A stretch of DNA of 32,000 nt, taken from NCBI RefSeq assembly GCF_002075285.3, contig NZ_CP021983.2, positions 3,450,001 through 3,482,000 of the forward strand, given 5' to 3'. Below the pieces are notes generated by a model. It had not been told where the DNA came from. It saw only the letters and a list, made by a program, of their open reading frames with translations, and did no database searches. A program made the translations under genes and the position numbers. This document shows positions 759 to 4,073 of the stretch, one piece after another; within the stretch, counting starts at the first letter, position 1, and each line of letters begins with the position of its first letter. Source of the DNA: Halomicronema hongdechloris C2206. GTDB lineage: Bacteria > Cyanobacteriota > Cyanobacteriia > Phormidesmidales > Phormidesmidaceae.

Positions 759-3700
759 CTAAGTTGGAGCCGCAGCCAGCATTTCAGACAAAGCCGTCTC
801 GACATCCAACAATACCCGTTCCAGATCTTCCCGAATGTGCGCCACCAGCCGATCGAGTTGGTCGAGAATGTCTTGGGGGTCAAGGGTGGTGGCTAGGCGA
901 ATCTGTTCAAAGGCATCATTGAGGGGCGCTTGTAGATTGAGCGGATTGAGCAGGTCGAGTGCCGATAGGATCTCGCCCCACTGCTCAGAAATGGTAGTTT
1001 GCAACCCCCTAAGACTGGTAATAATGCCGTCAATGATGTTCGTAAATCCCTGGGTTTTGCTGCTCAGGTCCAGTTCGGCCAGAAGGGTATCCGGATGGAG
1101 ACTGTCCAAAGCCGTCACCAACGGTGTGTACACGTCAGCCTCTAAATCGGCAATGATTCCCGCCGGATTGAGGGCTTCGAGCTGAGCCTTGAGCGGATTG
1201 TAGATTTCGCCAAAGGCTTGCTTCAGAAGCGTGGGTAAAAAGCCCGTGGTGTTGGCACTCAAGCGATCGAGAATGGGGGGTAACTCGGCCACAAAGACAT
1301 CGCCAAACTGGGCTGTTTTCACGGCAAATTGTTCGTACACTTGGTTGACTTCGTCCGCCAATCGTCCCGGATTGAGGATTTCAAGGTGGGCCTGAATATT
1401 CTCCAGACTTAGTGTTTCTTGCAGAAAAGGCGGAATCAGCCCGGTTAACTGTTCACTCAAAGGACCAAACGCAGCCGCCAATTTGCCCACATTCAAGCCA
1501 GTGGTCAGGCGTAGGGTGTTGCGATTGAGACTTTGGAATGTGGGGCGAAAGTCAGCCAGGGTCAAGTCTGGATTGAGGCTGGGAATTGTTCCGGCAATTT
1601 GGAAATAGTCGGTTTGCAAGGCGGCGGGCACTTGTACTATATCGATACTATCCAAAGCCAACAGCAGTTCCCCGTAGGCACTGTAAACATCGGCGACGAG
1701 ATCGAACCGTTGGGTAAAGTCAAAGCGGGCCAGTTGTTGTTGTAAATCCGAGGCAATTTGGGCGGAGAGATTGAGGGGAGCGATCGTCGCTAAAGCCTCC
1801 ACAAATTGGCCCTTTAGATGATTAAAAGCATCGACTAAGGTGGCTTCAGGAATTTGGGTTAAAGCTCCAACAACTTTGTTGTAAACATCTTCGACCGGAC
1901 GGAGAATATCCCCTGGCATAAATCCTAGGGTGTCATCTGCCGGGTCGGGCGTATCTGGGTCTAGATAAGTCTTCAGATCACCGGCACTGTTAAACCCATC
2001 TCCGACATTTTGGAGTCCCCCCAACGCTTGCTGCAGCCATTGGCTAAACATCCCCTCAAGTTCATCTAGAAACGGGGTAATGTCTAACTTGTCAAACAGC
2101 GCCATGATATTGGCAAACTGCTGGGTTAGCGGTGTCAAAAGCTGACTGGGAGAAAGATCTGCCATTGCCTGCTGGAGCGCTTCAAAGAGTTGTGTTAAAG
2201 GGGCGATCGCTTGCGTTATCAGTTGATCCAGCCCCCCTAACTGTTGGGTAAATGACTCAATCTGGTCCAGCACCGGATCAATCAATGTCGCGGGATTATA
2301 CTGATCCAAGGTGCTTTTGACGTGATTAAACGGTTCTGCTAGGGGCGTTAGCAAATTGGCCGGATTATAGTCAGCCAGTTTATCCGTGAGCGCCTGATAT
2401 TTGGCGAGCAGTTCATTCACCAAATTACCGGGATGGACTTGATCAAAAGTATTGAGAATTTCGGTGCGGACAGGGCCAAGGTCGATGTTCGACAGGACTC
2501 CGGCGCTAACTCGAAAAGCACTCAATTCAGCTTCCGATAGCAAATTTTCATTGATCGACTCCAGTGTTGCTTCCAAACTGCGAATGGCTTCGATAATCGG
2601 TTCGGCAAACTGACGGAAATCAATGTCTTCTAACTGTCCAATCAAGCCGCTGACCTGATCCAGGGCATCGTCGAGGACCGGGCCAAAACTGGCGATCAAC
2701 CCCTGCACCTGATTCAGCAGATTCATCACCTGATCGCGAAAGGCTTCAAGGGGAATGGCGGCGATCGCCGATTCGATCGCTGTTCCCACGTCGGAAATCA
2801 GGGTTTCGACCTGATCGCCCCCCGTTTCAAGGCTTGCGAGCACTGAGTCGATCTGGTCGCAGGCGGCTTGAATCGCAGTTTTCACGCCATCAGTTTGGGA
2901 GGTGATGCTGGTGATGCCATCCCCGAGGGTGCCAAAGAAATCTGCGATCGCATCCCGAAACTGGTCTAAATTCAAACTGGCGATCGCCTCCCCGATGGCG
3001 TTAAAGGGCTTAAGCAGTCCCGCCTGGATTTCATCGAATCCCTGCCCTTGAATCACGTCGTCCAGATAGCTGTTGGCATCTCTCAACCGTTGGGTCAACG
3101 CTTCTGGCGTCAGGGCATCCAGCCGAGCGGTGATCTGTTGAATCGGCGTCAGCACCAGTTGCAAAAAATCATCCACCTGGGCCACTTTGACCTCGGGAAC
3201 GTTTTCCAGAGTCTGCTGCAAATTGTCGTTCAAGCCTTCCACGTTCAAGCTAGACAATCCGGTCTGAAAGTCGTTGACCAACTGGGTTAATTGGGTTTGC
3301 ACTCCGGTCAGATGGCCTTGAGCTGCGGTGACCCCCGTTTGCAGGCTTGGGTAGGCAGCAGCATCGGTTAAATCCAGCGTTCTCAATTGGGTAGCCAAGG
3401 TCCGAAATTGGGTGGCTGTGGTTTGCAACGCAGTCTCAAATGCCTCCACTTGAGTCGCATCCAGCAACCCGGCGATGTCTGCTTGCATGCCCTCTACCAG
3501 ACTTAGGGGGGCGGCCAGCAGGTCGAGGGGTACGCCGAGAAAACTCTGGGCCAAAAACGTCGCGACCTCTGTCGGATCGCTGGGCAGATTGGCTTCAAAG
3601 GTTTGCAACGTATTGACGAAGGTCTGCAACACTTCCAAAGATTCTGTCGGGATCAGCGTGTTGAACTCGGCAATCAGGCTATTCACCAAGGAAATAGGAT

Positions 3701-4073
3701 CTCCCGCTTGTTCGAACACGACATCGCGCAAATCCCGCAGGCCATCGGCGGAAGCCAAAACATCCTGGAGGGGAGCCAGGATGTCGAAGACTTCTGTGAA
3801 CTGGGCTTGGAAGGTTTGAATGGCGGGGATTTGCCCTGCCGAAAGCTGCTCGAGAAACTGATCGAAGCTGGTTTCTAAGGGGGCTACCAAGGCCGCTGGT
3901 TCGTCGGGAATGGCCTCTGCCAAAGACCCGAGTCCGGTCGTCAGGGGCGCGATCAAGCTGCTGGTGTCGTCTGGTAGGGTGGCCGTCAGGGTAGAAAATC
4001 CATTTGTCAGTGTTTCCTGGGCGTCAATAGCGCTGGTTAAGCTTGGCAGTTGGGAAAGAATGCCGTTTGCCAT
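759..4073 (-). CDS. Large (1104 aa) highly acidic helical-repeat protein of unknown family. It could be a payload, a cap extension or a length determinant of the contractile system.
   Basis: This is a long uninterrupted ORF whose ATG lies 2 nt after the stop of the upstream gene. It has no hydrophobic TM-like stretch and one Cys. D/E clearly outnumber K/R, and the protein is rich in L/Q/T/A/D. A degenerate motif recurs at least 10 times: YNPANLLTPLAEPF, YNPATLIDPVLDQI, LSPSQLLTPLTQQF, LNPGRLADEVNQVY, LNPAGIIADLEADVY, LHPDTLLAELD, LNPLNLQAPLNDAF, LDPQDILDQLDRLV, VHPGNLVNELLAKY and LTPEALTQRLRDAN. I recognise no known family. Confidence 0.75.
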   Translation of the reverse strand: MANGILSQLPSLTSAIDAQETLTNGFSTLTATLPDDTSSLIAPLTTGLGSLAEAIPDEPAALVAPLETSFDQFLEQLSAGQIPAIQTFQAQFTEVFDILAPLQDVLASADGLRDLRDVVFEQAGDPISLVNSLIAEFNTLIPTESLEVLQTFVNTLQTFEANLPSDPTEVATFLAQSFLGVPLDLLAAPLSLVEGMQADIAGLLDATQVEAFETALQTTATQFRTLATQLRTLDLTDAAAYPSLQTGVTAAQGHLTGVQTQLTQLVNDFQTGLSSLNVEGLNDNLQQTLENVPEVKVAQVDDFLQLVLTPIQQITARLDALTPEALTQRLRDANSYLDDVIQGQGFDEIQAGLLKPFNAIGEAIASLNLDQFRDAIADFFGTLGDGITSITSQTDGVKTAIQAACDQIDSVLASLETGGDQVETLISDVGTAIESAIAAIPLEAFRDQVMNLLNQVQGLIASFGPVLDDALDQVSGLIGQLEDIDFRQFAEPIIEAIRSLEATLESINENLLSEAELSAFRVSAGVLSNIDLGPVRTEILNTFDQVHPGNLVNELLAKYQALTDKLADYNPANLLTPLAEPFNHVKSTLDQYNPATLIDPVLDQIESFTQQLGGLDQLITQAIAPLTQLFEALQQAMADLSPSQLLTPLTQQFANIMALFDKLDITPFLDELEGMFSQWLQQALGGLQNVGDGFNSAGDLKTYLDPDTPDPADDTLGFMPGDILRPVEDVYNKVVGALTQIPEATLVDAFNHLKGQFVEALATIAPLNLSAQIASDLQQQLARFDFTQRFDLVADVYSAYGELLLALDSIDIVQVPAALQTDYFQIAGTIPSLNPDLTLADFRPTFQSLNRNTLRLTTGLNVGKLAAAFGPLSEQLTGLIPPFLQETLSLENIQAHLEILNPGRLADEVNQVYEQFAVKTAQFGDVFVAELPPILDRLSANTTGFLPTLLKQAFGEIYNPLKAQLEALNPAGIIADLEADVYTPLVTALDSLHPDTLLAELDLSSKTQGFTNIIDGIITSLRGLQTTISEQWGEILSALDLLNPLNLQAPLNDAFEQIRLATTLDPQDILDQLDRLVAHIREDLERVLLDVETALSEMLAAAPT

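Follow-up and report, generated by a model that had tools for sequence, protein, structure and literature searches.

Contractile injection systems (CIS), tape measures and RHS effectors are already known kinds of component. CIS are under development as programmable tools for protein delivery, for which two questions are open: what determines length, and by what means cargo is loaded. A length that is kept while the sequence remains free is typical of rulers and scaffolds. The tape measures of extracellular CIS (eCIS) have a central helical region, and a coefficient of 0.216-0.229 nm per residue applies to these systems (bioRxiv 10.64898/2026.05.27.728243). Lineage II eCIS are also without a recognisable Afp14 (PMC6899500) and thus provide a precedent for tape measures that cannot be recognised by homology. 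Tme, a tape-measure-related effector of the Streptomyces davawensis CIS (PMC11126660), shows that a ruler-like body can be joined to a payload, and cyanobacterial CIS with anchoring extensions exist (PMC8894136). Here we examine a 1104-residue protein of the cyanobacterium Halomicronema hongdechloris C2206, which is encoded next to an RHS gene in a contractile-tail operon. The operon lies in a stretch of 32,000 nucleotides (NZ_CP021983.2, positions 3,450,001 to 3,482,000), hereafter the window, whose numbering is used throughout.

This protein, labelled FAM1120, is a structural, helical core protein under a length constraint, and it is genetically locked to a partner of RHS type. It represents a widespread unannotated family fixed in a machine without an AAA+ loader and without a recognisable tape measure, in which an RHS shell is encoded among the hub genes. 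Literature searches returned no description of this protein family or lineage, no account of an obligatory partnership with an RHS shell whose gene lies in the hub block, and no account of a system that combines the absence of an AAA+ loader with a conserved S8 protease and a hub of Mu type; the lineage is apparently undescribed. The reading that we favour, held tentatively and with less than even confidence, is that of a tape-measure-like axial core protein coupled to an RHS payload.

A helical protein of constant length locked to an RHS-type gene

FAM1120 is encoded on the minus strand (759..4073) by an open reading frame (ORF) with an ATG start. By exact sequence it is XM38_032750, annotated as 'hypothetical protein'. 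The stop codon of the upstream ORF (TAG) is followed by TC and then by the FAM1120 start codon, so that the tight coupling to the tail operon described in an earlier note, which had been made from the letters of the window alone, is correct. The reading frame given there was likewise confirmed, on a strand that the note had left unstated, and so was its account of an acidic protein with one cysteine and no hydrophobic segment. Aspartate and glutamate (151 residues) far outnumber lysine and arginine (41), which gives a net charge of -110 and an isoelectric point of 4.05, and leucine accounts for 16.3% of the residues. The negative charge is even along the protein, all 40-residue blocks except one being net negative. 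Hydropathy reaches a maximum of 1.56 (Kyte-Doolittle, 19-residue window), so no transmembrane-type segment is present.

The recurring motif reported in the same note is real. In its core form, phi-x-P-x-x-phi-x-x-x-phi, it occurs in 14 copies, 13 of which lie in the second half, compared with 2.2±1.4 copies (maximum 8) in 2000 shuffles of the protein; the strict pattern (L/Y)(N/S/H/D)Pxx(L/I)xxx(L/V)xxx(F/Y) is found 4 times, versus 0.01 in shuffles. Autocorrelation of the profile reveals the helical lags 3, 4, 7 and 11 together with a 23-residue period, which peaks at residues 540-700. Across the whole family the best-conserved columns are prolines, and conservation is highest in a central block of Pro-capped repeats (residues 481-680) and in the last 24 residues. 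This C-terminal segment is a candidate docking end, a role of which its conservation is suggestive. AlphaFold models contain ~45 helices and zero strands; the predicted local distance difference test (pLDDT) was 68.8 with an alignment of 12 sequences and 80.3 with one of 64 sequences, the latter with a predicted template modelling score (pTM) of 0.45. Five confident blocks (residues 1-70, 160-290, 380-640, 720-900 and 1000-1100) are separated by low-confidence linkers.

A word-indexed search retrieved 12 relatives, each of 1101-1156 residues. HMMER, run over 1.84 billion cluster representatives, returned 309 at E ≤ 0.001 (57 of these at E ≤ 1e-30), which sets the family size at a minimum of 309 clusters (50% identity clustering). 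Members longer than 1000 residues have a mean length of 1121±30-34 residues, depending on the filter, and family members align collinearly with FAM1120 from end to end at 17-25% identity. Every member is acidic, with a net charge of -73 on average, and rich in Leu; apart from a single entry spuriously named 'phage shock protein A', the source names read 'hypothetical protein'. Among Cyanobacteria the lineage occurs in Halomicronema, Kovacikia, Cyanothece, Spirulina and Synechococcales, and it is also present in Acidobacteriota, Chloroflexota and Rubrobacter, that is, in at least four phyla. The family has no counterpart among known families or folds.

In the nine loci that were reached via homologues, the family always lies inside a tail-like cluster, and a large beta-rich gene stands directly 3' of it every time. 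The partners encode RHS/YD shells (one with a phospholipase D domain), a ~1400-aa NHL propeller, an S8-like giant and an unknown 1045-aa protein; the latter, in locus L007, was tested as a paralogue of FAM1120 and is not one. A metagenome scan was also anchored on the baseplate J protein, with the operon genes mapped by phmmer or hidden Markov models (HMMs). This anchor is blind to the FAM1120 family, which removes the ascertainment bias. Every J-anchored locus of the lineage with enough flank carries the family (16/16), and the association with this tail type envisaged in the earlier note is thereby borne out. The family is missing from a single locus, L078, whose J protein has an identity of only 32% and which has no other gene in common. 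Three loci from a contig scan (L009-L011), in which the HMM does not find the family, were discarded as relatives.

The commonest gene order is N/Dit-like, FAM1120, RHS (710-805 aa), gpD hub, spike, tip, PKD, gp25, J and I, followed by distal genes for fibres, a coiled-coil protein, p258 and an S8 giant of 1640-1680 aa. In 14 of the 16 sampled relatives the family is flanked by the N/Dit-like gene on one side and, beyond an intervening RHS gene, by the gpD hub on the other, and N197 is its usual upstream neighbour there. In the window, L001 and L008, family and RHS gene have shifted together to a position after p258. In L003, L085 and L092 the family stands last in the operon, following fibre-like genes that encode 540-655 aa; the RHS gene follows it in L003, and the L085 and L092 contigs end inside the family gene. 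Family and partner thus occupy two different operon positions as a unit. The payload position before an RHS gene, as the earlier note had put it, holds for the layout of this genome and not for most relatives, which place the gene between the Dit/N-like and gpD-like hub genes. Among 25 readable loci the next gene encodes an RHS protein in 20, an NHL propeller in 3 and another protein in 2, and it nearly always begins with an overlap of -4 or -1 or within ≤13 nt. The 215-nt spacer of the window is an exception to the 4-nt overlap, or distance of at most 13 nt, seen in its relatives.

Thirteen operon genes were compared between the window and nine soil loci. FAM1120 has the lowest identity to the window protein (25%), with a length that varies by ~3%. 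The RHS protein (31%) and the long fibre (37%) come next, and the hub, spike, gp25, J, I, N197 and p258 proteins range from 46 to 62%.

One clade (L006:3922-8091, L013:4481-8752, L014:5322-9431) has the RHS gene replaced by a gene for an NHL/TEN_NHL-type propeller of ~1400 aa, which starts with a 1-nt overlap; its only member with a taxonomic label is a Chloroflexi metagenome-assembled genome. Teneurin-like proteins are built from these two elements, the NHL propeller and the YD shell.

Possible roles: ruler, carrier or effector

A tape-measure function is favoured for FAM1120 because the protein is universal in the lineage, because no other long helical protein is encoded in the operon, and because it combines a fixed length with a drifting sequence. 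Its location in the hub gene block, the precedent of afp14 and that of lineage II eCIS point in the same direction. With this indirect support the tape-measure hypothesis of the earlier note stays plausible. We infer a location in the tube lumen, a ruler function, a docking end and physical binding to the RHS protein. On this model FAM1120 would be an all-helical structural core component, with no enzymatic role, of a contractile injection machine that resembles a phage tail and stands alone. It would be incorporated along the middle of the particle, in the tube lumen and hub, as the machine assembles, and its conserved C-terminal end would dock at the hub. Selection would keep its fixed length and not its exact sequence, and the protein would leave the particle on contraction. 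Together with the downstream RHS shell it would constitute a 'ruler/carrier plus payload' module, like a split version of tape-measure-related effectors. At the eCIS coefficient, 1104 residues would imply a particle of ~240-250 nm.

A number of observations weigh against a ruler. Homology to tape measures was not found by sequence or profile. Pfam gave sub-threshold helical noise alone (ATG17_like, Baculo_PEP_C and Apolipoprotein), NCBIfam gave no match, and a search of the PDB with the family profile gave designed helical bundles and coronavirus heptad repeats, again noise alone. Foldseek comparison of two AlphaFold models with the PDB and BFVD produced generic solenoid or coiled-coil matches (TM ≤ 0.13, with root-mean-square deviations of 50-130 Å); an umbrella-toxin particle chain (ranks 7 and 9) and BFVD tape measures were rejected as kin, these matches not being significant. 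In PHROGs, FAM1120 matched five tape-measure families (E 1e-11 to 1e-6), its reversed sequence matched families of the same kind (3e-11 to 6e-9) and a full shuffle matched none. Because the reversed sequence reproduces them, the PHROG matches reflect a shared helical amphipathic texture and not descent, and they were dismissed as homology. A tblastn search of 50,697 phage genome records found no homologue, so FAM1120 does not represent a prophage tape measure that known phages also carry. The Pfam, NCBIfam, PDB and fold searches agree with the earlier note, which had recognised no family, and neither structure prediction nor homology searches brought up an unrelated housekeeping family. The ~45 short Pro-capped helices are confidently predicted as bundles, unlike the long continuous helices of a lumenal coiled coil. 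The Afp14-like position after the fibre genes, to which the earlier note had drawn attention, is present in the window and is special to the layout of this genome. An RHS shell is too wide for passage through the tube, and its carriage by a lumenal protein is unexplained. Finally, FAM1120 travels with the RHS gene as an adaptor-payload module would, and the Mu/P2 tape-measure slot (tube, small protein, X, N/Dit-like, hub) is filled by another protein, idp399.

These last two points lead to a rival that we consider possible and give somewhat less credence, namely that idp399 is the true tape measure and that FAM1120 is a large adaptor or scaffold, which mounts or cages the RHS-type payload at the hub or spike and does not measure. 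An idp399-type gene of 354-413 aa keeps the Mu/P2 slot in both operon layouts, and the homologues are conserved in length and possess a conserved C-terminal helix. As a ruler, idp399 would predict particles of ~85-90 nm by the eCIS coefficient. It is, however, P/G-rich and without a central helical region such as eCIS tape measures have, which would make it an unusual, non-helical ruler. As for the adaptor role, FAM1120 and the RHS gene are translationally coupled and relocate together, and the type of partner varies by clade (RHS, NHL, S8-like giant) while FAM1120 is constant. A constant gene with a changing partner is the pattern by which the adaptors of type VI secretion systems (T6SS) were recognised. 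A second such pair exists, p258 and the S8 giant, which stands alone on a Rubrobacter contig and likewise tells against the ruler. An adaptor of 1100 residues would, however, be far above any known effector adaptor. FAM1120 is moreover present in every cluster, where the RHS shell is itself a conserved orthologous core gene, and the lowest identity combined with a fixed length is not expected for a specific docking adaptor.

The remaining proposals appear weaker. It is rather unlikely that the lineage is a hybrid of two principles of delivery, in which a contractile tail has recruited an RHS cocoon as a built-in core part, joined to it by FAM1120 as an axial track or holder that would position the cocoon and feed its content through or along the tube, and would thereby replace TcA or the AAA+ loader, both missing from this machine. 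We regard as quite unlikely an ejected effector or translocator, whose apolipoprotein-like, Pro-punctuated amphipathic helices would act on target membranes and help the RHS toxin across. The 23-residue Pro-punctuated helical periodicity, the weak Apolipoprotein and Baculo_PEP_C matches, the low identity of both FAM1120 and RHS between relatives (as for target-facing proteins) and the position at the operon end in the window would all suit such a protein. However, the Pfam matches are a resemblance only, far below threshold (17.1 bits for PF01442 Apolipoprotein, cutoff 90), there is no hydrophobic segment, and a uniformly acidic protein with very few Lys or Arg is unfavourable for anionic membranes. 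Presence in every cluster with a fixed length is also unlike polymorphic effectors. The cargo hypothesis of the earlier note is borne out in outline by the strict RHS link; FAM1120 is, however, the constant member of the pair in every cluster, for which a carrier or structural partner fits better than a polymorphic effector. We consider it highly improbable that FAM1120 caps the particle or extends it as an anchor to some cell structure, a proposal of the earlier note for which the analysis turned up nothing in support. The anchoring extensions of cyanobacterial CIS and the long, probably elongated shape of FAM1120, as judged from the large deviations of the Foldseek alignments, are compatible with it; the protein is nevertheless without a transmembrane or amphipathic anchor segment and unlike the Cis19 and Cis12/Cis13 extensions, its family is also found in non-photosynthetic phyla, and the adjacent genes belong to the hub and the payload, not to the terminator. 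The thylakoid-anchored CIS of Anabaena was rejected as a match, that cluster belonging to an AFP-like lineage with different accessory genes.

If FAM1120 is the ruler, as in the favoured tape-measure reading, it would represent an independent class of tape measures, for which unusually long particles are predicted. If it is the RHS carrier, it would reveal a novel means of attaching very large payloads to a contractile tail. Both readings are open to direct test in cultured cyanobacteria (Halomicronema hongdechloris, Kovacikia minuta).

The operon and its companions

The genes from 18630 down to 759 are all on the minus strand, mostly overlapping or a few bases apart, and constitute a contractile-tail operon (Table 1). 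The tail operon upstream and the RHS gene downstream that the earlier note had recognised are both in place, the YD/RHS ORF starting 215 nt downstream of FAM1120. The intervening spacer holds an inverted repeat, CCCGTC(N11)GACGGG, at 624-646 and has no terminator-like site on the operon strand.

Table 1. Features of the FAM1120 locus, in window coordinates
Feature	Coordinates	Strand	Basis
5' part of RHS/YD-shell gene, cut by window edge, ATG at 543, orthologous to relatives' RHS	1..543	-	similarity, synteny
Non-coding 215-nt spacer between FAM1120 and RHS	544..758
FAM1120, 1104-aa acidic all-helical protein	759..4073	-	ORF, composition, family, model
FAM1120 residues 1081-1104, most conserved terminal segment, consensus E.AF..ML.A.P.G	762..833	-	family conservation
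FAM1120 residues 546-662, clearest ~23-residue Pro-capped helix repeats, within central block 481-680	2088..2438	-	periodicity, motif, conservation
p258, conserved 257-261-aa protein, no known family; precedes FAM1120	4076..4852	-
111-aa coiled-coil protein	4877..5212	-
523-aa tail-fibre-like protein	5219..6790	-
159-aa protein, weak tail-collar fibre similarity	6809..7288	-
434-aa baseplate wedge protein, gpI / gp7-like	7444..8748	-	PHROG
Baseplate J-like protein, 637 aa	8758..10671	-
gp25-like / sheath-initiator-like protein, weak matches	10668..11096	-
254-aa protein, weak PKD similarity	11104..11868	-
147-aa protein in spike-tip position	11902..12345	-	position
gpV-type spike (Phage_base_V, weak)	12342..12998	-
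gpD/VgrG-related hub protein (weak Phage_GPD)	12995..14041	-
N197, 197 aa, DNA_circ_N at threshold (22.1 bits, cutoff 21), weak Dit-like and gpU-like matches	14048..14641	-
idp399, 399 aa, P/S/T-rich, apparently largely disordered, conserved C-terminal helix	14644..15843	-
p179, highly conserved, 160-190 aa, gene follows that of the tube, no known family	15840..16379	-
166-aa protein in tube position, sole match weak PHROG tail	16394..16894	-
Contractile tail sheath	16960..18630	-
S8 subtilase with P-domain, 740 aa (proprotein-convertase P-domain), upstream of sheath	19384..21606	-

The hub block resembles those of Mu and P2, with DNA_circ_N at threshold and weak Phage_GPD and Phage_base_V matches, and the L003 gene at the spike-tip position has a PAAR motif. 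No AAA+ ATPase of the Afp15 type and no member of the Afp16/DUF4255 terminator family was found with Pfam in the window or in the gene tables of the related loci. As both are missing, the locus is not an eCIS of the type of the antifeeding prophage (AFP) or the Photorhabdus virulence cassettes (PVC), and since no AAA+ loader is encoded in the flanks examined, cargo loading must differ from that of AFP and PVC. No integrase, capsid or terminase genes are in view around the tail cluster. The missing capsid and terminase genes indicate a stand-alone tail-like machine on the chromosome, and the adjoining ATP synthase genes, with no integrase or capsid gene in view, indicate that the cluster is embedded in the core chromosome.

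Among the proteins of the proximal block, p179 has an identity of 58-70% across Cyanobacteria, Acidobacteriota and Chloroflexota, which argues for a structural protein. It has no match in Pfam, NCBIfam or PHROG, and its gene overlaps the next one by ATGA; a similarity to tail assembly chaperones could not be confirmed. Homologues of idp399 (L004:6461-7702, L007:6579-7724, L014:206-1309, L095:10528-11592) are Pro/Ser/Gly-rich, apparently disordered and always lie between the p179 and N/Dit-like genes. Only their C-terminal helix is conserved, ending ...RHGV.. (TYGV in the window). Sequence searches of the PDB with idp399, p258 and N197 gave no match.

The RHS shells of the lineage are orthologous across loci (25-54% identity over ~700 residues), some with C-terminal extensions, and the RHS shell is a conserved core gene product of ~710-805 aa and not a polymorphic toxin. 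Examples are L028:4122-6434, L033:4371-6575, L012:4064-6196 and L001:13465-17046, the window holding the 5' end at 1-543. The canonical DPxG...DPxG motif for autoproteolysis is missing from these shells. Near the shell end they all have an HExxH motif (YEHELRHxxQY..GPFFHLG) in common, whose domain has no Pfam match even at E ≤ 10; a possible likeness to the DUF4157 domain of CIS effectors, for which Pfam gave no match, is a lead only.

The S8 subtilase is a recurrent companion of the lineage. Elsewhere it is a giant of 1640-1680 aa encoded directly after p258 (L028:16328-21328, L033:16684-21726, L021:16199-21127, L096:1921-6948), and in most relatives p258 stands before this giant S8 protease. 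On the Rubrobacter contig the p258 and S8-giant pair is found without neighbouring tail genes. In the window, ~750 nt upstream of the sheath gene (18631-19383) are without an ORF ≥80 aa and may have a regulatory function. Between the S8 and ATP synthase genes, on the plus strand, an ORF of 232 aa (21918-22616) matches no family significantly. The ATP synthase gamma and alpha genes follow on the minus strand (23356-27596 and beyond), and then small ORFs on the same strand.

Comparison with known systems

Like the tape measures T4 gp29, P2 gpT, Afp14 and Alg14, FAM1120 is a long helical protein with no enzyme domain. It is encoded by a core gene of the tail cluster, beside hub genes in most relatives, and its length is kept while its sequence drifts. 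As with afp14 of AFP, its gene comes after the fibres in the window. In contrast to these tape measures, FAM1120 has no detectable homology to them, is extremely acidic, is made of many short Pro-capped helices, does not occupy the canonical slot and is always coupled to an RHS-type gene.

Tme is similarly encoded by a large ORF of a CIS cluster and combines a tape-measure-like body with a payload, as FAM1120 and its partner may do near the baseplate genes of most relatives. Tme is, however, a single polypeptide that is ~70% disordered and contains DUF4157, transmembrane helices and a nuclease domain (PMC11126660), whereas the FAM1120 body has none of the domains of Tme and the RHS payload is a separate gene.

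The adaptors and chaperones of T6SS (DUF4123, DUF1795/Eag, DUF2169) are also encoded by conserved genes that lie upstream of, and move together with, the gene of a large secreted-type protein such as RHS. They are small (~150-400 aa) and belong to defined Pfam families, whereas FAM1120 has 1104 residues, is present in every cluster and has no Pfam match to DUF4123, DUF1795 or DUF2169.

Tc toxins, in which TcA is combined with a TcB/TcC cocoon, resemble the locus in that the gene of a helical protein is followed by that of an RHS shell. TcA differs in its size (~2500 aa) and in its VRP1, receptor-binding and TcB-binding domains; FAM1120 has no corresponding Pfam match, and no TcA chain is among its Foldseek matches (TM at most 0.13). 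The Tc cocoon differs as well, since the RHS shells of the lineage do not carry its DPxG...DPxG cleavage motif. By analogy, the TcA-like gene order suggests the idea that FAM1120 may act as a conduit or holder for the cocoon.

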